Positions 1-13,574 of a stretch of 13,574 bases of DNA are shown here, piece by piece. The notes beneath the pieces were generated by a model. That model made no database searches and was not told the DNA's origin. It saw nothing but the letters and a program-made list of their open reading frames with translations. A program made the position numbers and the translations under genes. Source of the DNA: a virus (Duplodnaviria; Heunggongvirae; Uroviricota; Caudoviricetes); the IMG/VR virus record IMGVR_UViG_2684622582_000008, positions 1-13,574 of that record. One strand, 5' to 3'. Numbering within the stretch: the stretch's first letter is position 1; each line of letters begins with the position of its first letter.

Positions 1-1038
1 CTACTTTTTCGACTCTTTATTCCACTGTAGCAAACCAGCGATATCCTTCTCGCCTTCGGCTTCTTTTAAGCGCCGTTGTTGTTCGGCAAACTGAACATAC
101 TCCGCCTGCGCTTTTTCATCGGCCATTTTCTTGCTGATTTTACCAGCGCCCTGTAGAACCTCTCGGTCGTTAAATTGCAGGAACTGATCCAGCTTATCCT
201 GCCAGTCGCGCAAAAAGACTTGCTGACGACGACGGGCCTGATCCTCGGCAAAGTCCAGCCACATATTAACCACGCGATTAAGTTCGCTGACCTCATCCTG
301 GGTGAGATAATTTTTTGCCACCGTCACGTCGCCCTTACGTACCTCTTCACCTTTATAACTGGTCAAGCCCATGTGCGGCTGGCTGGCATCTGCTCGTTTG
401 TGGATGAGTTCCGCAGCGGTATGCCCGGTACAGGCAAAATGCAGTTTATTCTGGATGGTTTGAAAAAATTGCGTGGTTTCTTTAAGCGATGGCTGATAGT
501 CGGCAGCTAAAGCAAAGATCTCCCGCACCCGCAAATATACCCGACGCTCGCTGGCGCGAATATCGCGGATGCGTTCAAGCATCTCATCAAAATAGTCGGG
601 CACAACCGATGAACCGACAGGCGGATTCTTCAGCCGCTCATCGTCCATCACAAAACCTTTGATCAGGTATTCCTGAAGCGTCTGGGTGGCCCACTGGCGG
701 AATTGCGTGCCTCGAGGCGAGCGAACGCGATAGCCGACAGCGAGAATGGCTTCGAGGTTGTAATGGTCTATCTCTCTGGAAACCTGACGTTTTCCTTCCT
801 GGCGAACTATCCGGAATTTCCGGATGGTTGAGTTTTGAACAAGTTCACCTTCGGAAAATATATTGATTAAATGTTCGTTAATAGTGCGAACATCTTTATC
901 GTACAGTTCAGCCATTGCCGCCTGGGATAACCAGATTGTGTCTGACTCAAAGCGACATTCAACACGCACTCTTCCGTCACCGCTGGCAAACATAATAAAC
1001 TCGCCTGCTGGGGGCTGGGTTAAGTCTTTGTCTGACAT
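1..1038 (-). CDS. rhuM: RhuM-family (virulence protein RhuM-like) protein, 345 aa; lies outside the satellite, next to the displaced selC 3' end
   Basis: Minus-strand ORF with TAG stop at 1-3. Preferred start is ATG at 1038 (MSDKDLTQ...), preceded by GGAGG 4 nt upstream. The longer ORF-track start at 1122 would run through the att repeat. Family call is from recalled similarity to RhuM proteins of selC-linked islands such as Salmonella SPI-3. Confidence 0.6.
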   Translation of the reverse strand: MSDKDLTQPPAGEFIMFASGDGRVRVECRFESDTIWLSQAAMAELYDKDVRTINEHLINIFSEGELVQNSTIRKFRIVRQEGKRQVSREIDHYNLEAILAVGYRVRSPRGTQFRQWATQTLQEYLIKGFVMDDERLKNPPVGSSVVPDYFDEMLERIRDIRASERRVYLRVREIFALAADYQPSLKETTQFFQTIQNKLHFACTGHTAAELIHKRADASQPHMGLTSYKGEEVRKGDVTVAKNYLTQDEVSELNRVVNMWLDFAEDQARRRQQVFLRDWQDKLDQFLQFNDREVLQGAGKISKKMADEKAQAEYVQFAEQQRRLKEAEGEKDIAGLLQWNKESKK

Positions 1039-1088
1039 GTCGCCTCCGAAGGAGTGTTGTTGACGTCGGGAGAGTTCAGGAGAGGCAT

Positions 1089-1111
1089 TTTGGCGGAAGA
1101 TCACAGGAGTC
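1089..1111. repeat. attR: displaced copy of the selC 3' end (direct repeat of 11803-11825)
   Basis: tggcggaagatcacaggagtc at 1091-1111 is identical to 11805-11825; the match extends 2 nt upstream (tt). Imperfect similarity continues into the element (caaaattgcc vs cgaacctgcc). Confidence 0.85.
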
Positions 1112-1233
1112 AAAATTGCCATATAACCACTTGATTCAAATCGTTTATATTTTTCTATTCTAATTCATTTATACACATCCTTATACATATAATATCTATC
1201 GATTAATTGTTACACGTATCTTCACGCACGTTA

Positions 1234-1540
1234 ACTCAGGAAAAAAATTTTTTTTCGGAAGAACTGTTCACACTGTTCACCTTTCTGTTTTCTCCTTTTA
1301 TTTCAGTTTGATAGGTGGTGAATAATGGGTGAAGGGTGAACATTCGATTCTTCACCTCCGGCATTCTGCCGGTGTGACTCATACCGGTGATTAATCCTCC
1401 GCACTGAAATCACTCAGGAAGAAAAAAGTTTTTTTGATTTGATTGTTCACACTGTTCACCTTTCGTTTTTCTCTTTTAATTTCAGTGTGATAACGGGTGA
1501 ATATACGGTGAAGGGTGAACAGTGGATTGTTCACCTTCGG
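1234..1540. repeat. crr-like cis replication region: two ~128-bp direct repeats (1234-1361 and 1412-1540), each with several TGTTCACC/GGTGAACA type-I-like iterons
   Basis: The two segments align almost base for base (actcaggaa...ttcacactgttcacctttc...ggtgaagggtgaaca...ttcacc). Octamers such as tgttcaca (1265-1272), tgttcacc (1274-1281) and ggtgaaca (1335-1342) are present. Position directly downstream of alpha matches P4 crr. Confidence 0.75.
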
Positions 1541-1554
1541 GGGATTCAGGGATG

Positions 1555-1578
1555 AAAAAAGACCGGCAGATGCCGGTC
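1555..1578 (-). terminator. Rho-independent terminator downstream of alpha
   Basis: Stem gaccggc/gccggtc (1561-1567 and 1572-1578) with a 4-nt loop. On the minus strand it is followed by a run of six T (complement of aaaaaa at 1555-1560), 17 nt past the alpha stop. Confidence 0.55.
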
Positions 1579-1594
1579 AGATGAGTCATGAGGG

Positions 1595-3928
1595 TCAGGT
1601 TGTTGCAGGGTCGTCACATTTTGGCAGCCAGTCGCCGTAGCTTTCCTCTTTCAGCGTCAGGTTGGTCTGTATCCCCTGTTTGGTATGGCGCTTCTCGTAA
1701 TTCAGCCCGTATTCCTTCAGCATCACCGGCAGCCCCAGCCCGAACATTTTCAGACTGAGTACATTCCGGTAGCCGTTTGCCTCCATGTAGGCCAGATAGG
1801 CGTGATAGAGGTATTTACGGTAATTACGCGGGATGATACTGGCGTTCCCCATATACATGCCGCTGGTCTGCGGCAGGGTTTCCAGATAGCCGATAAAATC
1901 AAACGTCGGGTCGGCATCCCGTTTGATGTTCAGTGCCTCGTCTGAGTTCTGCTGGGACTGAAGCAGTGACCGGGCGAGCATCGGGTCGCTGAATTTCTGC
2001 ATCAGGTGACGCACGATGACCGCCAGCTCGCGGGTGATTTTGTCCTTAAGCTGCGGGTCGCGCTCCTGCGGGGCTATCTGTTCCGGGAAGTGAATAATCA
2101 CCCGCCGGCGTGACACGCCGCCGCTGCGGTCGGTGAAGCGCATCGGGTTATTGTTCACGGCCAGAATCACCGCCGGGATATGCGTGGAGTACGCATCCCG
2201 GTATTTCGGGTCCACGGACACCGCATCGCCGCCGGTGATGGCCTTGAGTCCGGCACCGTCGCCGCTCCATTTTTCCTGGTCCGGCAGGCGTATCAGTGAG
2301 AAGCCAGTTAACGCGGCACGTTCACGCGGGGATTCCAGCGTCTCAATGGTGGCCGATGTGGCGTTATCCTCCCCGGCCAGCAGGGTGGCGATTTCGGCCA
2401 TGATACTTTTGCCGCTGCCGCCGGGACCGGTCACCTCCAGAAAGAGCTGCCAGTCGTAGCGGTTTGCCAGCACCATAAACAGTGCGGCCAGAATCACGTC
2501 GCGTTTTTCCGCACGGCCACCGGCGGCACGGTCAAGCCAGCGCCAGAACGCGGGGGCGTGGTTTTCCAGCGTTTCCCCTTCCACCGGCGGGGTGAAATCC
2601 ACATCGCACAGGGTGCGCATCCAGTGTGACGGACTGTGCAGGTGGAACGTGCCGTTCTGCGTGTCGAGCACGCCGTTACGAAAGCCAATCAGGCGGCGGG
2701 AGGGGGCTTCCTGCTGCGGAATAATCAGCTTCAGGGTGTCCACCACGGAGGCCACCTTCCCGGAGGAGAACGGCGCGCGCAGACGCTGAAACAGCCCGGC
2801 CACATCCCGGGCAAAGTCCTGTGGCGGCAGCATCTTCCAGACACCATTTTCATAGCGGGACAGAAGCTGGCCGTTGGCATCGACCGCGAGCGCCTCGCCG
2901 TAATGCTCATAGATACGCATGGCCTTTTCGCTGGTACTCATGGCGGAAAACTCCGCTTCGCTCATGGTGTCGAACGGGCTTTCAGCCGGTGGCCGGATGG
3001 CATCGTAAATGGCCTTACGGGTGGCCTCCCCGCCGTACTGCGTGAAGGCATCATTCCAGTCACCGAAGACCGGCGGCAGGGCAACAACGCCCTCACACGC
3101 ATCTGCGGCTGCGGCGGCTTTTTTCTGGCCGTCACCGCTGAGGTCACGGTCAGCAGCAAGGACAATCTGACAGGCCGGATGCTTCTGCCGGGCAAGGCTG
3201 GCCAGAGAAAGGAGGTTCACGGAAGAAAGCGCCACCATCACCGTTTCACCGGTCAGGTGATGTACGGTAAGTGCGGTCGCGTATCCCTCCGCTATCCACA
3301 GACGTTTTCCGGCCTGATTCTGTCCTTCAAGGATGTGACAGGTGCCCCTGACCTGTCCGCCTTTCAGGGTGCGCTTACGGCCGTCAGCACTGATTAACTG
3401 AAGGTTAACCAGTTCGCCGCTGTCGTCATACAGTGGCACCACAAGGTCACCGGCACGCCAGCTCACGCCACCGGCTCTGTGTGTGCCGGTCAGCATCCGG
3501 CATTCCCGGCCGGGAAAGCCCTTGCGGGTCAGGTAGGCGTTACCGGTTCCGGGACGGGTTTTCGCCATCAGGGTTTGTGCCAGTGCGGCGGCGTTCTTCC
3601 GGGCAGCGTCTGTTTCAGCAACGGCGGCGGCCGTCACTGCCGGGTCAGCCGGGGGCAGGCTGCCGGTCACGGCAGCCACCTTTGTGGCCGCGTCGGACGG
3701 GGAGACACCAAACACCTTTTCAACCAGTTTCAGGCCGTCACCGGCACCACACTGATTGCAGTACCAGGTGCCGCGCCCCTCCCTGTCATCAAAACGGAAG
3801 CGGTCACTCCCGCCACAGACCGGACAGGGCTGATGACGGTTTTTCAGCACCTGAATCCCCAGCGCCGGGAGGATACGCGGCCAGTGGCCGAGCGCATGGC
3901 TGACGGTGGCGGTTACGTTCATTTTCAT
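1595..3928 (-). CDS. alpha: P4 alpha-type primase-helicase (zinc-binding primase N-terminus, central/C-terminal P-loop helicase), 777 aa
   Basis: ATG at 3928 with GGAG upstream. N-terminal CPVCGG...WYCNQCG zinc-binding motif; Walker A GPGGSGKS; length equals P4 alpha (777 aa); flanked by crr iterons. Confidence 0.85.
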   Translation of the reverse strand: MKMNVTATVSHALGHWPRILPALGIQVLKNRHQPCPVCGGSDRFRFDDREGRGTWYCNQCGAGDGLKLVEKVFGVSPSDAATKVAAVTGSLPPADPAVTAAAVAETDAARKNAAALAQTLMAKTRPGTGNAYLTRKGFPGRECRMLTGTHRAGGVSWRAGDLVVPLYDDSGELVNLQLISADGRKRTLKGGQVRGTCHILEGQNQAGKRLWIAEGYATALTVHHLTGETVMVALSSVNLLSLASLARQKHPACQIVLAADRDLSGDGQKKAAAAADACEGVVALPPVFGDWNDAFTQYGGEATRKAIYDAIRPPAESPFDTMSEAEFSAMSTSEKAMRIYEHYGEALAVDANGQLLSRYENGVWKMLPPQDFARDVAGLFQRLRAPFSSGKVASVVDTLKLIIPQQEAPSRRLIGFRNGVLDTQNGTFHLHSPSHWMRTLCDVDFTPPVEGETLENHAPAFWRWLDRAAGGRAEKRDVILAALFMVLANRYDWQLFLEVTGPGGSGKSIMAEIATLLAGEDNATSATIETLESPRERAALTGFSLIRLPDQEKWSGDGAGLKAITGGDAVSVDPKYRDAYSTHIPAVILAVNNNPMRFTDRSGGVSRRRVIIHFPEQIAPQERDPQLKDKITRELAVIVRHLMQKFSDPMLARSLLQSQQNSDEALNIKRDADPTFDFIGYLETLPQTSGMYMGNASIIPRNYRKYLYHAYLAYMEANGYRNVLSLKMFGLGLPVMLKEYGLNYEKRHTKQGIQTNLTLKEESYGDWLPKCDDPATT

Positions 3929-3942
3929 GGTGTTGTTCTCCT

Positions 3943-4263
3943 TCAGTGCAGTACCGGCGCTTTTATGTGACGGGCACAGAGTTCATCCATCACAACCAGC
4001 CCGAGAAAGGACAGCGACGGCGCGGCCTTCAGGGGGCCGGATTCCATTAAATCTTCCAGCAGGGCACAGGCTATCTGACGCCCTTTTTCCTCACCGTGCT
4101 GGCGCAGATAAAAGCCTTCCAGCTCAGCGGCGATGGCCGCCTCCAGTGATTCAAGGGTGAGATGCGGGTAGCGGTGCTGACGTTCGCACACGGTCAGCCA
4201 GGCACAGGCGACAGCGCGACGGTAAAGGGCTGCGCGTAAGACGGGCGGTAAGGGGGTTTTCAT
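3943..4263 (-). CDS. cnr: P4 orf106-like small protein (possibly Cnr copy-number regulator), 106 aa
   Basis: ATG at 4263 preceded by GGGAGG. Ends 14 nt upstream of the alpha start, so it is in the operon. Size and position match P4 orf106; the cnr name is from memory and tentative. Confidence 0.5.
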
Positions 4264-4398
4264 TTGTTTTCCTCCCTGTGACAGATGACTGCATTCCGTG
4301 CCGGTTGCATTAACTGATAAGGCATATCTGCGTCTCCTGAAGACGTGCGTATCCCTGCGCGAATACGCACATTTAATTTTTCGGGTGTCGTTTTTTAA

Positions 4399-4854
4399 TT
4401 ACAGATAATTGCGGTAACTGTTATCCGGGGTGATTTCCGGGTCAGGCTCCGTGCGGGAAATTTCCCGCCATTCCCGCGCCACCGGTGCCGCCCGGCTGGC
4501 CGGAACAGTGTCCTGCGGGTAAATATCCAGATATTTCTCCCGCCATTTCTGTAATTCCGGGTCTCCGGCCATTTCTTTCAGTACCGCATGCCGGTTTACG
4601 GGGCTGCGTTTGAACAGGTCAGGACGGTCACAGGTAAATTCCCGCAGAAAACGCCCCAGCGGGATGTCTGTGGTGCGCCCGTCAGTGAGGATACGCACAA
4701 GGATACTGAATTTTCGGCGGTACGGGTTCCAGACAATTTCCGGACAGCGGTACGGCATTTCCCACGGAATACCGTCTTCCAGAATGCCGACCACGGCCAC
4801 ATCGGGAAAACCGGCAGAACGGTAAATCTCACCGGGCTGGGGAAAATCAAACAT
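4399..4854 (-). CDS. P4 orf151-like hypothetical protein, 151 aa
   Basis: ATG at 4854; start overlaps the stop of the upstream epsilon-like ORF by 8 nt (coupling). Size and position match P4 orf151. Confidence 0.6.
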   Translation of the reverse strand: MFDFPQPGEIYRSAGFPDVAVVGILEDGIPWEMPYRCPEIVWNPYRRKFSILVRILTDGRTTDIPLGRFLREFTCDRPDLFKRSPVNRHAVLKEMAGDPELQKWREKYLDIYPQDTVPASRAAPVAREWREISRTEPDPEITPDNSYRNYL

Positions 4855-5134
4855 GTGTCCTGTCTCCCCGGTCTTTCTGCTGGGCGAGAAAATCGCGGCA
4901 CAGGCCTTTGGCTTTCAGCTCATTCAGCACAAAATCAATATCTTCATTCAGGTAGCTGAAAATATGCGGAATGTAGAGCTGATGCAGGCCGGAGAGTTCA
5001 CGGTGAATCAAATCACCCCCAACAAACCGGGATACTGCGCTGGCGCGGTTGAGCTTATGGTAAGCCTCAATGCTGAGGTGTTCACGGGCGTCATGACGCG
5101 CTGAGACGGTCTGAGGGGCTTTTTTATTACGCAC
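4847..5134 (-). CDS. epsilon: Epsilon-like protein (P2-type helper derepressor), 95 aa if GTG start at 5134
   Basis: In-frame GTG at 5134 preceded by GGAGG (revcomp of cctcc at 5141-5145). Overlaps the stop of the upstream 65-aa ORF (GTGCGTAA). Alternative in-frame ATG starts at 5179 or 5215 cannot be excluded. Function inferred from position and size only. Confidence 0.5.
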
Positions 5135-5324
5135 GGGACACCTCCACCACCGGCAGACGGGCAGCAAGGGAGAGCACATAGTCACGGACAAGGGAACGGC
5201 GGGCGCTGCGTTCATCACCGGCGACGGTGCGAAGCATGCAGATACGGGGATGACGGTCTGCGCGACGGACAGCCGCAAACACAAAGACAAATTCAGGGTG
5301 TGAAGGGGTAAGGGTTGTAGCCAT
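5127..5324 (-). CDS. Small hypothetical protein (65 aa), first well-supported ORF after the leader
   Basis: ATG at 5324 with AAGGAGA 7 nt upstream; TAA stop at 5127. It is the C-terminal part of a longer open frame (5127-5762) that I do not accept as one gene. Confidence 0.45.
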
Positions 5325-5355
5325 AAGGCAGTCTCCTTCGAGTAGCAAATAACTG

Positions 5356-5619
5356 CTATCGCCGGAGTTCCTACGCTCGATGGCGATAGCCCAGACGGGG
5401 GTAGGAATACCGGCCTCGAAGAATACCGGCCAGCCCGGAGGCTGCCCCGCCTGAGCTACCATTGACTCAGTGGCATAACATGCGATTGCGAACAGGATCA
5501 TACCTGCACGGCAAACCACACGCCACACCATAATCTGGCGCTCTGTGGCGTTGATTGCGACACAAAAAAAGACGCATGGCGCGTCATATGTCGCCTTCGA
5601 GTTACACGGGTTCCTACGC
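5356..5619 (-). ncRNA. Candidate P4-type immunity leader (cI-like RNA with seqA/seqB/seqC-like elements)
   Basis: No RBS-supported ORF between the vis stop and 5324. gttcctacgc occurs twice (5367-5376 and 5610-5619); ggggtaggaat at 5397-5407 is near-complementary (8/10) to it. Hairpin ctatcgcc/ggcgatag (5356-5363 and 5382-5389). Order on the leftward transcript (copy, complement, copy) matches the P4 seqA-cI(seqB)-seqC layout. Confidence 0.35.
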
Positions 5620-5648
5620 CCGGCTGCCGATTTTGCGGCAGCGGAAAA

Positions 5649-5678
5649 ACTATATCCGCAAATGCCGGAAAAAGGCAA
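5649..5678 (-). promoter_or_regulatory. Candidate constitutive leftward promoter (PLE-like)
   Basis: On the minus strand: TTGCCT (-35; plus 5673-5678) and TATAGT (-10; plus 5649-5654) with 18-bp spacing, just downstream of vis. Confidence 0.3.
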
Positions 5679-5713
5679 GCCAGAAAAAGGGAGTTTTTGC
5701 AGAGCGGGCATCA

Positions 5714-5980
5714 TCATGCGTCGTACCCCCGTTTGCGTCCGGCAATGCGCCCGGCCATCCATGCGGTGATTTCAGAGTGCAGCCAGGCCACATTTTTACC
5801 GCCAAGACTCACCTGCGGCGGAAATTCCCCCTTACGGATGAGTTCGTAGATGGTCGAGCGTGACAGGCCGCACAGGTGCATCACTTCCGGCAGACGTAAA
5901 AAACGCTCCTGCGTGATGTCCGGCAGCGGCATCAGTGGCGTCACAGGGGCGGGAGACGGGGAAGAAAAAACAGCTTGCAT
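5714..5980 (-). CDS. vis: AlpA/Vis-family helix-turn-helix regulator/excisionase (P4 orf88 vis-like), 88 aa
   Basis: ATG at 5980 with GAGGT upstream. Segment [29 protein letters not shown]...[10 protein letters not shown] is typical of AlpA-family proteins. Length equals P4 orf88 (vis). Confidence 0.75.
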
Positions 5981-6081
5981 CGGGCTACCTCGTTAATGTC
6001 CATACAGCACCGGATAAGTCCGTCCGGCTTCGGGTAGCGCTTTATTTTGTGAATATTTTCAGCAGACGCAACAGGGGGATT

Positions 6082-6099
6082 TGTTCAGGCTGCCTTACA
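6082..6099 (-). promoter_or_regulatory. Delta/Ogr-type activator site (TGT-N12-ACA) of a leftward late promoter (PLL-like) upstream of vis
   Basis: tgt tcaggctgcctt aca at 6082-6099, centred about 110 bp upstream of the vis start. Confidence 0.5.
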
Positions 6100-6257
6100 A
6101 TGACTGTGTGTTTTTTATCCATCTGGACTGGAAGGGTCTCAAAGGGTTCTGAAGGACCTGGAATTTTTTATAGTGAAATACAAATTGTTTTTTCTTATTT
6201 ATTTCAGTGAATTAATAAAAATAAACAGTAGTAAACAGCACAAAAAGTCCATGAGCG

Positions 6258-6361
6258 GGTGAACAGTGGTGAACAGACGGTGAACAGTCATTACTGCGAT
6301 TGTTCACCCTTTAACTTACTGTATTACTTATCTTTTTTATTAAGGTGAACAGAGGTGAACA
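6258..6361. repeat. ori-like cluster of six type-I-like iterons (GGTGAACA/TGTTCACC)
   Basis: ggtgaaca at 6258-6265, 6268-6275, 6279-6286, 6344-6351 and 6354-6361; inverted tgttcacc at 6301-6308. Same octamer as in the crr-like repeats about 4.8 kb away. Confidence 0.7.
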
Positions 6362-6440
6362 GTAAAATATAAAAAAACAAACAGTAAGCCGGTTTTTCCT
6401 GCGACCTTTTCCTGGCTTGCCGGTGTGAGGATGAGTCTCC

Positions 6441-6458
6441 TGTGTCAGGGCTGGCACA
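6441..6458 (+). promoter_or_regulatory. Delta/Ogr-type activator site (TGT-N12-ACA) of Psid late promoter
   Basis: tgt gtcagggctggc aca at 6441-6458, centred about 80 bp upstream of the sid ATG (6531). Confidence 0.55.
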
Positions 6459-6530
6459 TCTGCAATGCGTCGTGTTGTTGTCCGGTGTACGTCACAATTT
6501 TCTTAACCTGAAGTGACGAGGAGCCGGAAA

Positions 6531-7265
6531 ATGTCTGACAACACCATCCCTGAATATCTGCAACCCGCGCTGGCACAACTGGAAAAGGCCAGAGCCGCCC
6601 ATCTTGAGAACGCCCGCCTGATGGATGAGACCGTCACGGCCATTGAACGGGCAGAGCAGGAAAAAAATGCGCTGGCGCAGGCCGACGGAAACGACGCTGA
6701 CGACTGGCGCACGGCCTTTCGTGCAGCCGGTGGTGTCCTGAGCGACGAGCTGAAACAGCGCCACATTGAGCGCGTGGCACGCCGGGAGCTGGTACAGGAA
6801 TATGACAATCTGGCCGTGGTGCTGAATTTCGAACGTGAACGCCTGAAAGGGGGGTGTGACAGCACGGCCACCGCCTACCGGAAGGCACATCATCACCTTC
6901 TGAGTCTGTATGCAGAGCATGAGCTGGAACACGCCCTGAATGAAACCTGTGAGGCGCTTGTCCGGGCAATGCATCTGAGCATTCTGGTACAGGAAAATCC
7001 GCTCGCCAACACCACCGGCCATCAGGGCTACGTCGCACCGGAAAAGGCTGTCATGCAGCAGGTGAAATCATCGCTGGAACAGAAAATTAAACAGATGCAA
7101 ATCAGCCTCACCGGCGAGCCGGTTCTCCGGCTGACCGGACTGTCAGCGGCAACACTCCCGCACATGGATTATGAGGTGGCAGGCACACCGGCACAGCGCA
7201 AGGTGTGGCAGGACAAAATAGACCAGCAGGGAGCAGAGCTTAAGGCCAGAGGACTGCTGTCATGA
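6531..7265 (+). CDS. sid: Sid-like capsid size-determination (external scaffold) protein, 244 aa
   Basis: ATG at 6531 with GAGGAG 8 nt upstream (the ORF-track GTG at 6513 has no RBS). Length equals P4 Sid; first gene of the sid-delta-psu operon. Confidence 0.8.
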   Translation: MSDNTIPEYLQPALAQLEKARAAHLENARLMDETVTAIERAEQEKNALAQADGNDADDWRTAFRAAGGVLSDELKQRHIERVARRELVQEYDNLAVVLNFERERLKGGCDSTATAYRKAHHHLLSLYAEHELEHALNETCEALVRAMHLSILVQENPLANTTGHQGYVAPEKAVMQQVKSSLEQKIKQMQISLTGEPVLRLTGLSAATLPHMDYEVAGTPAQRKVWQDKIDQQGAELKARGLLS

Positions 7266-7762
7266 TTTACTGCCCGTCGTGTGGACATGTTGCTCACACC
7301 CGTCGCGCACATTTCATGGACGATGGCACCAAGATAATGATTGCACAGTGCCGGAATATTTATTGCTCTGCGACATTTGAAGCGAGTGAAAGCTTTTTCT
7401 CTGACAGTAAAGATTCAGGAATGGAATACATTTCAGGCAAACAGAGATACCGCGATTCACTGACGTCAGCCTCCGGCAGTATGAAACGCCCGAAAAGAAT
7501 GCTTGTTACCGGATATTGTTGTCGGAGATGTAAAGGCCTTGCACTGTCAAGAACATCGCGGCGTCTGTCTCAGGAAGTCACCGAGCGTTTTTATGTGTGC
7601 ACGGATCCGGGCTGTGGTCTGGTGTTTAAAACGCTTCAGACCATCAACCGTTTCATTGTCCGCCCGGTCACGCCGGACGAACTGGCAGAAAGCCTGCATG
7701 AAAAACAGGAACTGCCGCCAGTACGCTTAAAAACACAATCATATTCGCTGCGTCTGGAATGA
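7262..7762 (+). CDS. delta: Delta-like late transcriptional activator (tandem Ogr-type zinc-finger domains), 166 aa
   Basis: ATG overlaps the sid stop (ATGA). CPSCGH...C..C and a second C..CC..C...C..C cysteine cluster are consistent with duplicated Ogr-like zinc fingers. Length equals P4 Delta. Confidence 0.8.
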   Translation: MIYCPSCGHVAHTRRAHFMDDGTKIMIAQCRNIYCSATFEASESFFSDSKDSGMEYISGKQRYRDSLTSASGSMKRPKRMLVTGYCCRRCKGLALSRTSRRLSQEVTERFYVCTDPGCGLVFKTLQTINRFIVRPVTPDELAESLHEKQELPPVRLKTQSYSLRLE

Positions 7763-7835
7763 GGGCTGCCGGTTAACACCGGCCGTCGCCGCACACCGTA
7801 TTTTTATTCTTCAGCATGATGAGAAAGAGATAACG

Positions 7836-8408
7836 ATGGAAAGCACAGCCTTACAGCAGGCCTTTGACACCTGTCAGAATAACAAAGCAGCATGGCTGCA
7901 ACGCAAAAATGAGCTGGCAGCGGCCGAACAGGAATATCTGCGGCTTCTGTCAGGAGAAGGCAGAAACGTCAGTCGCCTGGACGAATTACGCAATATTATC
8001 GAAGTCAGAAAATGGCAGGTGAATCAGGCCGCTGGTCGTTATATTCGTTCGCATGAAGCCGTTCAGCACATCAGCATCCGCGACCGGCTGAATGATTTTA
8101 TGCAGCAGCACGGCACAGCACTGGCGGCGGCACTGGCACCGGAGCTGATGGGCTACAGTGAGCTGACGGCCATTGCCCGAAACTGTGCCATACAGCGTGC
8201 CACAGATGCCCTGCGTGAAGCCCTCCTGTCCTGGCTTGCGAAGGGGGAAAAAATTAATTATTCCGCACAGGATAGCGACATTTTAACGACCATCGGATTC
8301 AGGCCTGACGCGGCTTCGGTGGATGACAGCCGTGAAAAATTCACCCCTGCGCAGAACATGATTTTTTCGCGTAAAAGTGCGCAACTGGCATCACGTCAGT
8401 CTGTGTAA
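7836..8408 (+). CDS. psu: Psu-like polarity suppression protein (Rho antagonist / capsid decoration), 190 aa
   Basis: Third gene of the late operon; length equals P4 Psu; N-terminus MESTALQQAFDTCQNN matches my recollection of P4 Psu. Confidence 0.8.
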   Translation: MESTALQQAFDTCQNNKAAWLQRKNELAAAEQEYLRLLSGEGRNVSRLDELRNIIEVRKWQVNQAAGRYIRSHEAVQHISIRDRLNDFMQQHGTALAAALAPELMGYSELTAIARNCAIQRATDALREALLSWLAKGEKINYSAQDSDILTTIGFRPDAASVDDSREKFTPAQNMIFSRKSAQLASRQSV

Positions 8409-8444
8409 AATTCCCCGAAAATCCGCCTGTTTTTACTGAAAAAA

Positions 8445-8483
8445 GCCATGCATCGATAAGGTGCATGGCTTTGCATGCGTTTT
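8445..8483 (+). terminator. Candidate terminator after psu
   Basis: Stem gccatgca/tgcatggc (8445-8452 and 8462-8469) followed by a T-rich tract tttgcatgcgtttt. Confidence 0.4.
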
Positions 8484-8572
8484 CCTGCCTCATTTTCTGC
8501 AGACCGCGCCATTCCCGGCGCGGCCTGAGCGTGTCAGTGAAACTGCATTAAAACCGCCCCGCAAAGCGGGCG

Positions 8573-8591
8573 GGCGAGGCGGGGAAAGCAC
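8573..8591. other. cos-like cohesive-end site (P2/P4-type 19-mer)
   Basis: ggcgaggcggggaaagcac matches the P2/P4 cohesive-end sequence as I recall it; it lies between psu and the cargo gene, as in P4. Confidence 0.65.
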
Positions 8592-8620
8592 TGCGCGCAT
8601 GTATGCAGGAAATAACCTGA

Positions 8621-8666
8621 CTCTCCAGCCAGAGAAAGAAACTGAACTGGAGAGTTTTTTGTTTTT
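8621..8666. terminator. Stem-loop with flanking T/A tracts between cos and the cargo gene
   Basis: ctctccag (8621-8628) pairs with ctggagag (8647-8654), followed by ttttttgttttt (8655-8666). It sits about 25 nt past the stop of the minus-strand cargo gene. Confidence 0.35.
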
Positions 8667-8678
8667 ACATGGATGTGT

Positions 8679-10439
8679 TCAGTTTTTATTTATGAATGAA
8701 ATACTGTTCTCTAGTGACTCCTTTACTTTTTTCACGGTGTTTTTTAACTCAATAATGGCTCCGCGACGAAAAGAAATTGAAAGTTCATTCAGGTAAGAAT
8801 TTAAGAACTCATCTAGTTTTTTTAGATGAGGTAGCTCGTTAGATAGATAATCGCGAAGGTTAGAAAAGTTGTATACAGATAATAGATGGTCTGAAAACAT
8901 TTGAATATCGTAAATGGACCAATTATGTTGTATGGCACTTATGATTAAATTTACATCTAAAGTTTCCAGTGCTTTAAACTTGAAATCTGAATGATATATA
9001 TCCATATCGATAGTGGTCCAACCATCGTTAACCATCTTGTTTTTTAATTCTTCTATTCTTTCTCTTTTTGTTATGTTAATATATTTGTCAACAAAAAAGT
9101 TATATAAATTATCTCCATCATGTTTTAGCATATTTAGTGGGATGTCATTGATGTTTGGCACGGTTTTATGAAAATATGATTTTATTTCATCGTCACTGAA
9201 GCTAAGTTTGCTTTGATTAATGGTGTCTTCATCTAGGGTGTTTATATGAGGTATATATTCATATTTTGAGAGTCTAATATAGTTATTCGTGGCAATTAAC
9301 CATGTAGATAGATCTGGAGAATTTGATTTTAAAATTGTTTTTATTATTTCTTCCTGATAGTCATGTTCAGATATGTTATATAACTCAGGTCTTAATAATC
9401 CAGCATAATCATTTCTCTTGGGAGGGGTATTGTCAGTAAAAACATATGGAAGAATGTCTTTATGCGAAATTGCATTAAAACAATATGGAGCCATTTTATT
9501 ATTATAGTTTTTGTATGCACTAATACTTAATAAATTGTTTTCTTCTTCACTTATTTCATTGTGTTCGTTTTCTGGTGTGGTTGAAATTGTTTTGAGTGAT
9601 GATGAAACAAAATTTTCACGAAACTCATTTTCCTTATAGTTGAATTTTTCCTTAAGTATTATATGTGCACACAATGAGCTTACTAAATTTTTAATATCTA
9701 TATCAGAGATATCTCTGTCTTGCGTTGTTTGTTCAAACAACGGTAGGAGTTTTACAATGACTCTATTAATGATTCGGATATTTGTTTCTTCGAAATCTAT
9801 AATTACTTGCTTAATGATGTCTCTATAATTTTCTTGTATTTTCTCAAGCTTTTTATCTAAAATGTCAGAAAGATTGTTTATAGAAAAGTATACCTCGTCG
9901 CTAATAACTTTTTCTTTATGATTCAATACCTCATTGCTTTGTTTTGAAAAATTACCAACTAAAATATAGTCTAACATCTTGTTATTTTGATAATTTTGTA
10001 AGCAAAAGGTTGCTATTTCATCTCGCAAATTTTGAGGTATACGTTCTAGATCATCAATAATAAAAACTCCTGAAAGATCTTTTAATACATAATGTTGCAT
10101 TGCCCCTGCAAATGTTGATATTATTTTTCCAGTAAACTTCCCAGTGCTTTCTTCTTTAGTAATAGCTGTGGTTACATTTGATGCTAACTCTGTAATTATT
10201 TCTATATCGGGTGGATTCTCTAAATAAGTTACACTCAACACCTTGTCTTTAAAATCTTGCAAACTATTTAATCCAAGCACAGATATATAAAATTGAGTTT
10301 TGTTGGAATAATATTGCTTAAATTCATTTTGAAGGAAGAATGTTTTACCAACCCCCCACTCACCGTTTAACAAAATTAGACCTTCACGTTTTTCATTTAG
10401 TAATCTAATTAAAACAGATATTATTGTGTTTTTATCCAT
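8679..10439 (-). CDS. KAP-family-like P-loop NTPase with large uncharacterised C-terminal region, 586 aa; candidate anti-phage defence cargo in the P4 hotspot
   Basis: ATG at 10439 with AAGGAG upstream. Walker A GEWGVGKT (GxWGxGKT type) and Walker B VFIIDDLER (hhhhDDL[DE]R type) in the first ~135 aa. Very AT-rich compared with the P4 backbone. Occupies the gop/beta/cII position between cos and int. Confidence 0.7.
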   Translation of the reverse strand: MDKNTIISVLIRLLNEKREGLILLNGEWGVGKTFFLQNEFKQYYSNKTQFYISVLGLNSLQDFKDKVLSVTYLENPPDIEIITELASNVTTAITKEESTGKFTGKIISTFAGAMQHYVLKDLSGVFIIDDLERIPQNLRDEIATFCLQNYQNNKMLDYILVGNFSKQSNEVLNHKEKVISDEVYFSINNLSDILDKKLEKIQENYRDIIKQVIIDFEETNIRIINRVIVKLLPLFEQTTQDRDISDIDIKNLVSSLCAHIILKEKFNYKENEFRENFVSSSLKTISTTPENEHNEISEEENNLLSISAYKNYNNKMAPYCFNAISHKDILPYVFTDNTPPKRNDYAGLLRPELYNISEHDYQEEIIKTILKSNSPDLSTWLIATNNYIRLSKYEYIPHINTLDEDTINQSKLSFSDDEIKSYFHKTVPNINDIPLNMLKHDGDNLYNFFVDKYINITKRERIEELKNKMVNDGWTTIDMDIYHSDFKFKALETLDVNLIISAIQHNWSIYDIQMFSDHLLSVYNFSNLRDYLSNELPHLKKLDEFLNSYLNELSISFRRGAIIELKNTVKKVKESLENSISFINKN

Positions 10440-10469
10440 AAAATACTCCTTTTAGTAATTATAATTAAC

Positions 10470-11642
10470 TCAATCTGCTGGATAAATAAAGTCACTATAC
10501 CATTGTAACATCTTTAATCTTTTCTCTAAATATTGAGCATGATTATATGTTCCCCTAATGCTATTTTTATCAACATGAGCTAGTTGCATTTCAATCCATG
10601 CACTATCAAAACCTTGTTCATGTAGTATTGTCGACATTGTATGTCTAAACCCGTGGCCTGTTGCACGTCCCTTATAACCAAGTAATTCGATCACTTGTGA
10701 TATACTTTCTTTAGAAATTGGTTTAGTACGATTATTACGTCCAATAAATATATAAGGATAATGGCTAGAGATGGGTTTTAATTGATTAAATAGGGTAATC
10801 ACTTGAGATGATAAAGGTACAAGGTGAGGCCGACGCATTTTCATGCGTTCTGCTGGTATTTCCCATATTCCTTTTTCTAAATTGACTTCTTCCCATGTGG
10901 CAAAACGCAGCTCTTGTGTTCTTACTCCGGTAAGCATCACAATCTTGGTTGCATTTTTAGTGATTATGCTGCCAGTGTAAGCCTCCAGATCTTTGACAAA
11001 ATAAGGGAGTTCTTCTGCTGATAGAAAAGGATGATGTTTTTGCTTCGGTACAGCTAATGCGATAGCTAAATCAGGTGCTGGATTGTATTCAGCACGGCCA
11101 GTGATGATCGCGTAGCGAAACACCTCTCCGCATCGTTGACGTACTTTTCTGGTTTTCTCCAACGCTCCACGTTTTTCTATGCGTTTAAGTACTTCAAGCA
11201 GTTCTAGGGGTTTAATTTCAGCTATTGGCCGTTTACCAATGAAAGGAAAAACATCCTGTTCAAATGTTTTAATAATTTCTTCGCGATAAGCTAGAGTCCA
11301 ACGATCTGCTTTTGCTGCGTGCCATTCTCTGCTAACTGCCTCAAAAGAGGTTTCAATTGATAATTTCTGAGCAATTTTCTGAGCCTTACGTTCTTCTACT
11401 GGATCAATGCCGTTTGCAACCTGTTTACGTGCCGTATCGCGTTTCTCACGTGCTTCTGCGAGGCTTACTAAATCATAGCTGCCAAATGACATTAACCGCG
11501 CTTTCCCAGCAAATCTGAAACGGAAACGCCAGCCTTTCGAGCCATCTGGATTGATAAGCAACGACAGACCTTGTCCATCGTTCAATGTGTATGGCTTGTC
11601 TTGTGGTTTTGCACGTTTGATCTGTATATCGGTTAGAGCCAT
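10470..11642 (-). CDS. int: Tyrosine site-specific integrase (P4/CP4-57-like family), 390 aa
   Basis: N-terminus MALTDIQIKRAKPQDKPYTL...WRFRFRF is typical of P4-family integrases. C-terminal catalytic region GHGFRHT...LAHVDKNSIRGTYNH. Lies adjacent to tRNA-Sec. AT-rich. Weak RBS. Confidence 0.85.
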   Translation of the reverse strand: MALTDIQIKRAKPQDKPYTLNDGQGLSLLINPDGSKGWRFRFRFAGKARLMSFGSYDLVSLAEAREKRDTARKQVANGIDPVEERKAQKIAQKLSIETSFEAVSREWHAAKADRWTLAYREEIIKTFEQDVFPFIGKRPIAEIKPLELLEVLKRIEKRGALEKTRKVRQRCGEVFRYAIITGRAEYNPAPDLAIALAVPKQKHHPFLSAEELPYFVKDLEAYTGSIITKNATKIVMLTGVRTQELRFATWEEVNLEKGIWEIPAERMKMRRPHLVPLSSQVITLFNQLKPISSHYPYIFIGRNNRTKPISKESISQVIELLGYKGRATGHGFRHTMSTILHEQGFDSAWIEMQLAHVDKNSIRGTYNHAQYLEKRLKMLQWYSDFIYPAD

Positions 11643-11804
11643 GTGTATAACTGAAAACTACGTATAAAAAATCTATACACATTACTATACATATTTTTCG
11701 CGGATTCAGGGAGATGAACTCGGACTATTACGGATAAGATGATTATTCATCGTATTGAATACAAAGGGTTTTATGGAGCGTCTCGGAACTGGCTGGATGA
11801 AGTT

Positions 11805-11899
11805 TGGCGGAAGATCACAGGAGTCGAACCTGCCCGGGACCGCTGGCGGCCCCAACTGGATTTGAAGTCCAGCCGCCTCACCGGAGACGACGATCTTCC
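11805..11899 (-). tRNA. selC: tRNA-Sec (selenocysteine tRNA), intact; its 3' end forms attL
   Basis: The reverse complement of 11805-11899 reads GGAAGATCGTCGTCTCCGGTGAGGCGGCTGGACTTCAAATCCAGTTGGGGCCGCCAGCGGTCCCGGGCAGGTTCGACTCCTGTGATCTTCCGCCA, matching E. coli selC as recalled, including the long variable arm and CCA end. Confidence 0.9.
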
Positions 11900-12191
11900 G
11901 CGCCTCGATTGCTACATGGAGGCGGGGCGCATTATAGCTACTTCCTTGAGTTTCTACATCCCCCAGATCAGTTTTTTCCGCCTAATACACGCAGCGTATT
12001 ATCACGAAAGCATTATAGTTCATATAAAAATCATATTTTACAATGATATATGAGCGAAATTAACGCTACCACGATCACATAAAACAAGAATCATAAATTA
12101 ATAACCAGATATCGGAATATTCGCTCTCGCAGGGATGGTTTACAAAATGCGTTATCGGTCTCAGCACCCCTATAGCATCAAGGAAAAGCAG

Positions 12192-13574
12192 ATGAAGAGT
12201 GAAGTGTTGTCCGTTAAAGAGAAAATTGGTTATGGCATGGGAGACGCCGCCAGCCACATTATTTTCGATAACGTAATGTTATATATGATGTTCTTTTATA
12301 CCGATATTTTTGGCATTCCTGCCGGATTTGTCGGAACCATGTTTTTGGTCGCTCGTGCACTGGATGCGATTTCCGATCCTTGCATGGGGTTGTTGGCCGA
12401 TCGAACGCGCTCTCGCTGGGGTAAATTTCGGCCGTGGGTGCTGTTTGGCGCACTGCCATTCGGGATCGTCTGTGTACTGGCCTATAGCACGCCAGATCTC
12501 AGTATGAACGGAAAAATGATTTATGCAGCAATTACTTACACCCTACTTACCTTACTTTATACCATCGTCAATATCCCTTACTGCGCATTGGGTGGTGTAA
12601 TCACCAATGACCCGACTCAGCGTATCTCGCTGCAATCCTGGCGTTTTGTGCTGGCGACCGCGGGAGGCATGCTCTCTACTGTTCTGATGATGCCACTGGT
12701 TAATTTAATTGGTGGTGATAATAAACCACTCGGTTTCCAGGGCGGTATCGCGGTCCTTTCCGTGGTGGCATTTATGATGCTGGCATTCTGTTTCTTCACC
12801 ACTAAAGAACGCGTTGAAGCACCACCTACAACGACGTCTATGCGGGATGATTTACGTGATATCTGGCAAAACGACCAGTGGCGTATTGTCGGTTTCCTGA
12901 CAATTTTCAATATCCTGGCGGTGTGCGTACGCGGTGGGGCGATGATGTATTACGTCACATGGATTTTGGGTACGCCGGAAGTGTTTGTCGCTTTTCTCAC
13001 CACTTATTGCGTGGGTAACCTGATTGGCTCCGCACTGGCAAAACCGCTGACCGACTGGAAATGTAAAGTCACTATCTTCTGGTGGACGAACGCCCTGCTG
13101 GCAGTGATTAGCCTCGCGATGTTCTTTGTTCCTATGCAGGCCAGCATCACCATGTTTGTCTTCATCTTCGTGATTGGTGTGTTGCATCAACTGGTGACAC
13201 CTATCCAGTGGGTAATGATGTCCGATACCGTCGACTACGGCGAGTGGTGTAATGGTAAACGCCTGACCGGGATCAGTTTTGCTGGCACGCTGTTTGTGCT
13301 CAAACTGGGGTTGGCCTTCGGTGGTGCCCTTATCGGCTGGATGCTGGCTTATGGCGGATATGATGCGGCAGAAAAAGCGCAGAACAGCGTCACAATTAGC
13401 ATCATTATCGCGCTATTCACGATTGTTCCGGCGATCTGTTACTTGCTGAGCGCGATTATCGCTAAACGCTACTACTCGCTCACGACGCACAATCTGAAAA
13501 CCGTTATGGAACAGCTGGCGCAGGGCAAACGCCGTTGCCAGCAACAATTCACCTCTCAAGAAGTGCAGAACTAA
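12192..13574 (+). CDS. yicJ: GPH-family (glycoside-pentoside-hexuronide:cation symporter) inner-membrane transporter, 460 aa
   Basis: ATG at 12192 with AGGAAAAG upstream (the ORF-track start at 12135 has no RBS). GYGMGD...D..R.RWGKFRPW GPH signature; many hydrophobic segments. Identity as yicJ is inferred from the selC-adjacent position in E. coli K-12. Confidence 0.7.
   Translation: MKSEVLSVKEKIGYGMGDAASHIIFDNVMLYMMFFYTDIFGIPAGFVGTMFLVARALDAISDPCMGLLADRTRSRWGKFRPWVLFGALPFGIVCVLAYSTPDLSMNGKMIYAAITYTLLTLLYTIVNIPYCALGGVITNDPTQRISLQSWRFVLATAGGMLSTVLMMPLVNLIGGDNKPLGFQGGIAVLSVVAFMMLAFCFFTTKERVEAPPTTTSMRDDLRDIWQNDQWRIVGFLTIFNILAVCVRGGAMMYYVTWILGTPEVFVAFLTTYCVGNLIGSALAKPLTDWKCKVTIFWWTNALLAVISLAMFFVPMQASITMFVFIFVIGVLHQLVTPIQWVMMSDTVDYGEWCNGKRLTGISFAGTLFVLKLGLAFGGALIGWMLAYGGYDAAEKAQNSVTISIIIALFTIVPAICYLLSAIIAKRYYSLTTHNLKTVMEQLAQGKRRCQQQFTSQEVQN

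Follow-up and report, generated by a model that had tools for sequence, protein, structure and literature searches.

An iteron cluster in a P4-like prophage at tRNA-Sec that matches ori1, the replication origin of phage P4

Iteron cluster and its identity with the P4 origin

A cluster of six octamer repeats in the window (the whole 13,574-bp stretch of DNA analyzed here) is almost certainly the main origin of replication (ori1) of a satellite phage-plasmid of the P4 type, carried here by a P4-like prophage of ∼10.7 kb. No sequence feature speaks against this assignment. The octamer GGTGAACA occurs in 11 exact copies on the two strands of the window. Chance expectation was taken from 200 dinucleotide-preserving shuffles of the window, which yielded a mean of 0.38 copies and a maximum of 3, with none of the 200 reaching 11. 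Six of the copies lie within 104 bp at 6258-6361 (Table 1), five of them direct and one inverted, which bears out the claim of a sequence-only reading of this DNA that such a group is found within ∼100 bp. The start-to-start spacings of the iterons are 10, 11, 22, 43, and 10 bp and, since they sum to 96 bp, or nine helical turns, the six sites would all lie on one face of the helix. By analogy, the 35-bp A+T-rich spacer between iterons 4 and 5 is likely the place of first strand opening. Tandem Repeats Finder reported merely two tiny period-10 arrays in the cluster.

Comparison with phage P4 (X51522/NC_001609) showed that positions 1242-8572 of the window are 97.4% identical to positions 4291-11624 of the phage. 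Within this span, a pairwise alignment with P4 gave 100% identity over a segment of 169 bp (6256-6424) that contains the 35-bp spacer along with all six octamers. The annotation of X51522 over the matching stretch reads “origin of DNA replication,” with six “ori type 1 repeats” that start at 9310, 9320, 9331, 9353 (on the opposite strand), 9396, and 9406, i.e., with the same spacing as in the window. Iteron sequence, orientation, and spacing as well as the A+T-rich spacer of P4 ori1 are identical to those found here. The proposal that the repeats follow the ori/crr architecture of P4 is supported by the positions of the octamers, which fall on the annotated type 1 repeats of the phage, while the distal copies fall in its annotated crr. 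The origin feature itself is already known, and it has to be regarded as ordinary, given that it is base-for-base identical to that of P4.

The remaining five exact copies of GGTGAACA are found at 1274-1535, 4.7 to 5.0 kb to the left of ori, confirming that the octamer is reused in crr-like repeats ∼4.8 kb away, as proposed from the letters alone. When one mismatch was allowed, five degenerate octamers were added (Table 1), and the five exact and five degenerate copies together correspond to the ten “ori type 1 repeats” annotated in the crr of P4. These sites are distributed over two 120-bp direct repeats that lie just downstream of the alpha gene and are 95% identical to P4 crr, which likewise consists of two 120-bp repeats with ten iterons. 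The name crr stands for the cis-required region for replication (bioRxiv 10.64898/2026.03.30.715334).

A difference from P4 is found to the left of the iterons, where the three 10-bp “type 2 repeats” of the phage (9176-9205) have no counterpart in the window and a patch of about the same size but different sequence (6126-6165) takes their place. This patch holds most of the mismatches of a region that is otherwise ∼95% identical. Among eight sequences compared, it occurs in at least three discrete alleles, shared by P4 and M6, by the window, SC487, and 2013C_3963, and by SY019 and MSB1_4I, respectively. The patch looks like a recombination block, because each allele shares nearby single-nucleotide polymorphisms. 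Covariation of the patch with Vis was considered and rejected, since Vis is identical to its P4 counterpart in 86 of 88 residues (98%) and the patch is wholly different. The type 2 repeats of P4 fall outside the published minimal ori1.

Table 1. Positions of the features in the window
Feature	Position	Strand	Remarks
crr 120-bp repeat 1	1243..1361		Type I iterons at 1265, 1274, 1317, 1335, and 1349 (1265, 1317, and 1349 with one mismatch)
crr 120-bp repeat 2	1422..1540		Type I iterons at 1444, 1453, 1496, 1514, and 1528 (1444 and 1496 with one mismatch)
alpha, 777 aa	1595..3928	-	Zinc ribbon + Toprim primase, D5_N/SF3 helicase, C-terminal winged helix
cnr (ORF106)	3943..4263	-	106/106 identical to P4 ORF106; Pfam DUF5375; upstream of alpha
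C4 antisense RNA (Rfam)	5379-5466	-	
isrK (Rfam)	5565-5642	-	
c4-a1b1 target element (Rfam)	5603-5655	-	
TGT-N12-ACA dyad left of ori	6082..6099		Candidate Delta/Ogr activator site of leftward late promoter PLL
Second A+T-rich stretch, left of iterons	6160..6240		GC 17-32% in 60-bp windows; conservation below that of the core
ori1 type I iteron 1 (GGTGAACA)	6258..6265	+	X51522 9310-9317, “ori type 1 repeat”
ori1 type I iteron 2	6268..6275	+	X51522 9320-9327
ori1 type I iteron 3	6279..6286	+	X51522 9331-9338
ori1 type I iteron 4, inverted (TGTTCACC on + strand)	6301..6308	-	X51522 9353-9360
A+T-rich spacer between iterons 4 and 5	6309..6343		35 bp; 6 G/C in 35, 17% GC
ori1 type I iteron 5	6344..6351	+	X51522 9396-9403
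ori1 type I iteron 6	6354..6361	+	X51522 9406-9413
TGT-N12-ACA dyads right of ori (two)	6441-6458, 6479-6496		Candidate activator sites of sid promoter
cos GGCGAGGCGGGGAAAGCAC	8573-8591		Starts directly after end of match to linear P4 record
P-loop NTPase, 586 aa	8679-10439	-	Pfam AAA_22, KAP_NTPase
Tyrosine integrase, 390 aa	10470-11642	-	Pfam integrase domains; adjoins right att/tRNA-Sec
att repeats, 39 nt	1082-1120 and 11796-11834		Imperfect direct, 85% identical
tRNA-Sec	11805-11899	-	3' end overlapped by right att repeat

Replication genes

The gene of the putative initiator, alpha, sits between ori and crr. Its product is identical to P4 alpha in 766 of 776 residues (99%) over the full length and matches the Pfam families Zn_Ribbon_Prim, Toprim_3, D5_N, DUF5906, and Pox_D5. 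The origin-binding domain (amino acids 671 to 770) does not differ from the solved P4 domain in a single position (100/100 identical to PDB 1KA8). Cnr, whose gene completes the set (Table 1), is the copy-number regulator of the oriI replicon; the name cnr for ORF106 is found in PMC8628076. The elements that define the P4 oriI replicon at the level of sequence, namely, ori1, crr, alpha, and cnr, are all present in the window.

Host prophage

Several features place the host element among the P4-like satellite prophages, with core genes in P4 order, a cos site, and att repeats. The genes alpha, sid, delta, and psu lie within the 97.4%-identical span, and the P4 map also places ORF151, epsilon, cI, and orf88 inside it (orf88/vis being 86/88 identical to P4). 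For comparison, the core gene set of P4-like satellites has been given as int, psu, delta, sid, alpA/vis, epsilon, and alpha (PMC8628076). Since the att repeats that bound the element include the 3' end of tRNA-Sec, it is located at selC. Its outer neighbors, a rhuM-family gene and yicJ, are those seen in E. coli chromosomes. GGCGAGGCGGGGAAAGCAC, which we take to be the P2/P4 cohesive-end sequence, begins at the very position at which the linear P4 record ceases to match, so that cos is apparently intact.

Two further genes gave matches in PADLOC. The RhuM-family gene (window 1-1122, minus strand), just outside the left att repeat, matches the candidate family PDC-S05 strongly; the annotated ATG (1122) and the first few codons fall within the att repeat, and residue 29 is the first that matches the family, so that the true start may be further in. 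The 586-amino-acid P-loop NTPase is a weak match to the candidate system PDC-S49.

The prophage could be defective, in which case the origin would be intact as a sequence but only a relic from which the element never replicates. Such elements occur in about one in five E. coli genomes, and some of them may be inactive; furthermore, the integrase and cargo modules differ from those of P4, as does the type 2 patch that flanks the origin. However, we consider this reading unlikely, given that the parts of the replicon are intact (ori core 100%, crr 95%, alpha 99% and full length, Cnr 100%) and that cos, sid, delta, psu, the integrase, and both att repeats are present. Rather, the identity of ori, crr, alpha, and cnr suggests that the selC-integrated satellite could replicate autonomously once excised. 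Such an ability would matter, as satellites of this kind are carriers of anti-phage cargo (PMC9122126).

Flanking promoters and other readings of the cluster

The cluster is intergenic, with orf88/vis (5714-5980, minus strand) on one side and sid (about 6531-7265, plus strand) on the other. It is flanked by TGT-N12-ACA dyads (Table 1), which, going by the late promoters of P2 and P4, are presumably Delta/Ogr activator sites. The two dyads on the right are 38 bp apart, an interval that we assume to fit putative activator sites at -55 and about -18 of the sid promoter.

This location between activator-type dyads (6082-6099 and 6441-6496) would also fit a transcriptional operator array that primarily controls the divergent late promoters PLL (leftward) and Psid (rightward) and is not an origin, and alpha bound at the cluster could indeed affect the flanking promoters. 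Nevertheless, the octamers recur in crr, where the P4 record annotates no promoter; helical phasing and a conserved AT-rich spacer constitute the layout of an origin; and the P4 record annotates the stretch as such. We therefore regard an array of operators in place of an origin as very improbable, while a secondary regulatory role of the iterons on the flanking late promoters is possible.

Other functional classes were rejected. No open reading frame of at least 50 amino acids overlaps 6258-6361, which argues against a coding sequence. A structured RNA was rejected likewise, as no Rfam family matched at 6258-6361; the hits obtained elsewhere in the window were tRNA-Sec, C4, isrK, and c4-a1b1. 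We take the latter three to represent the RNA-based immunity of P4, i.e., the CI RNA and its seqA/seqC-type targets. A DnaA-dependent iteron plasmid origin was dismissed because the cluster has no DnaA box in its vicinity, the sole matches to TTATNCACA in the window being at 1169 and 11642, and no Rep_3 protein among the open reading frames scanned.

The chance that the cluster is a product of random repetition or a miniature CRISPR-like array is next to nil: even though its direct repeats are short and regularly pitched, with two period-10 arrays in Tandem Repeats Finder, no shuffled sequence came to 11 copies, and a phage origin with the identical sequence is already annotated. The sequence-only reading mentioned a CRISPR-like array solely as a mistake that an untrained caller might make. 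CRISPR arrays have repeats of about 23 to 55 bp, unique spacers of similar length, and usually cas genes. A CRISPR array was rejected because the repeats measure 8 bp, are separated by gaps of 2 to 3 bp, and include an inverted one; the ten open reading frames of the window that were scanned gave no Pfam match to Cas families.

Proposed mechanism of initiation

Taking the cluster as ori1, the steps of initiation can be proposed by analogy with P4. The C-terminal domain of alpha would recognize the octamer GGTGAACA. Bound at both ori and crr, alpha would assemble at ori and open the 35-bp A+T-rich spacer between iterons 4 and 5; it would then unwind the DNA as a helicase and lay its own primers. 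According to this proposal, replication would be bidirectional and independent of the host proteins DnaA, DnaB, and DnaG, because alpha itself unwinds and primes. In the plasmid state, Cnr would damp initiation. The lack of a DnaA box near the cluster is consistent with such a DnaA-independent mechanism.

Binding, melting, priming, and the need for crr would thus carry over from published work on P4. In contrast, the sequence identity of the parts to P4, in cis and in trans, and the conservation of the layout across the family are observed directly. In P4, replication is bidirectional and proceeds without DnaA, DnaB, or DnaG, crr is needed in cis, and Cnr limits copy number. Deletion of an iteron of P4 ori1, or an insertion of 6 or 10 bp, is reported to abolish function. 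Alpha binding and replication dependent on ori, crr, and alpha were reportedly assayed on the identical sequence in P4 by Ziegelin et al. in 1993 (EMBO J) and Tocchetti et al. in 1999 (J Virol). The latter are said to have defined the minimal ori1 as a 123-bp segment with the six iterons and the 35-bp AT-rich region and, reportedly, also described a second P4 origin, ori2, which lies inside alpha and works with crr and without ori1. If so, ori1 would not be the sole possible start site. Alpha has been described to bind the origin repeats through its winged helix, then to unwind and to prime (PMC4234260, PMC2777425); a summary of the two P4 studies is given in PMC4234260. Given that the sequences are identical to those of P4, the same mechanism may be expected in the prophage after excision.

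Conservation across genomes

To gain an idea about the distribution of the origin, we searched complete E. coli genomes for a 441-bp origin region and found it in 1,005 of 5,426, in a total of 1,202 places, all of them chromosomal, with up to four per genome. Since the cores are near identical in these up to four copies, co-resident satellites may share their alpha/iteron specificity. In a sample of 30 E. coli records drawn from across the ranking, RefSeq has no annotation under the origin region. Being a textbook origin that turns up again in a prophage, the cluster is of little weight as a discovery; its use is in annotation, as so many genomes carry a stretch that the sampled RefSeq records leave blank.

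For a broader view, alpha was used to scan Enterobacterales with one genome per species, which yielded 80 loci with alpha 57 to 99% identical. Clusters of GTGAACA, whose background density is 0.18 per kb, were found 1.2 to 3.3 kb upstream of alpha in 41 of the 63 loci with enough flank and within 900 bp downstream of alpha, the position of crr, in 37 of 76 loci. In the band of 78 to 95% alpha identity, these fractions rose to 29/30 upstream and 33/42 downstream. Exact-octamer counts underestimated the distant origins, which were recovered by a pattern of spaced GTGAA cores (GTGAA-N5-GTGAA-N6-GTGAA-N18-TTCAC-N37-GTGAA-N5-GTGAA, each gap ±1). This six-site layout was present 1.2 to 3.4 kb upstream of alpha in 37 of the 63 Enterobacterales loci and nowhere else in them on either strand. 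With zero off-target matches in 63 loci, the pattern has the specificity needed for automatic labeling of P4-type origins.

Column conservation was determined from 41 aligned loci chosen for at least three GTGAACA copies, a choice that in part guarantees the conservation of the iterons in this set. The 35-bp AT-rich spacer played no role in the choice, and its columns are 70 to 99% conserved across the 41 loci, with poor conservation of the sequence left of the iterons. Among eight E. coli/P4 sequences, the spacer is nearly invariant. In the E. coli element GF3-3, the flanks are unalignable and the origin core is kept. Together, these comparisons suggest that purifying selection maintains the site layout throughout the P4-like family.

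The iteron word itself is GGTGAACA in the types from E. coli, Enterobacter, and Klebsiella. In two Pantoea loci (L046 and L049), the layout and the AT-rich spacer are kept ∼1.6 to 2.0 kb upstream of alpha; in these elements, alpha is ∼68% identical and the iteron words are the variants GGTGAATA, GGTGAAG, and GGTGAATAG, which hints at a co-drift of initiator and iteron. One could speculate that variants of the iteron word and of the type 2 patch set which alpha fires which origin, or that they bind a further factor, an idea that we consider rather doubtful. If true, specificity groups would govern cross talk or incompatibility between co-resident satellites.

Some matches came from unexpected taxa. 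Alpha 97 to 99% identical was found on four short contigs (L003, L004, L005, and L039) from bins labeled Clostridiales, Ferruginibacter, “bacterium,” and Ruminococcus (metagenome-assembled genomes), and the “Campylobacter phage” records MG065686 and MG065691 contain about 1.9 kb of matching sequence (∼98% identical, spanning 605-13574 with 14% covered). All of these are probably misbinned or contaminating E. coli sequences.

Comparison with known replicons

Replicons of the pRN1 ORF904 and poxvirus D5 type resemble the one described here in that a single polypeptide also combines a primase, an SF3 helicase, and a C-terminal winged helix. In such one-polypeptide primase-helicases, the winged helix recognizes the origin (PMC2777425, PMC4234260). 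The differences are that the origin of pRN1 has no iterons and that its primase is of the prim/pol type (PMC4234260).

The origins of iteron plasmids such as pSC101, R6K, P1, and F (oriS) also have helix-phased short repeats that bind the initiator beside an A+T-rich region that is to be melted, and they also have a second, distant cluster of iterons that takes part in control. In P4, the distant cluster, crr, is not just inhibitory but is required for initiation. The iterons of the plasmids are about 17 to 22 bp long, compared with 8 bp in the window, and their initiators are of the Rep_3 type, compared with a primase-helicase fusion. Given this initiator and the absence of a DnaA box near the cluster, ori1 would work like an iteron plasmid origin but is not one.

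Finally, the element departs from P4 itself outside the replicon. P4 has a 440-amino-acid Int and its own integration site is leuX, whereas the element in the window has a 390-amino-acid integrase at tRNA-Sec. Beyond cos, P4 has gop-beta-cII, while here the P-loop NTPase gene is found in the position between psu/cos and the integrase, which has been described as a defense hotspot of P4-like satellites (PMC9122126). What this analysis adds relative to P4 is the integration at selC, an integrase and a cargo gene unlike those of the phage, the divergence of the type 2 patch, and the family-wide survey of the layout.
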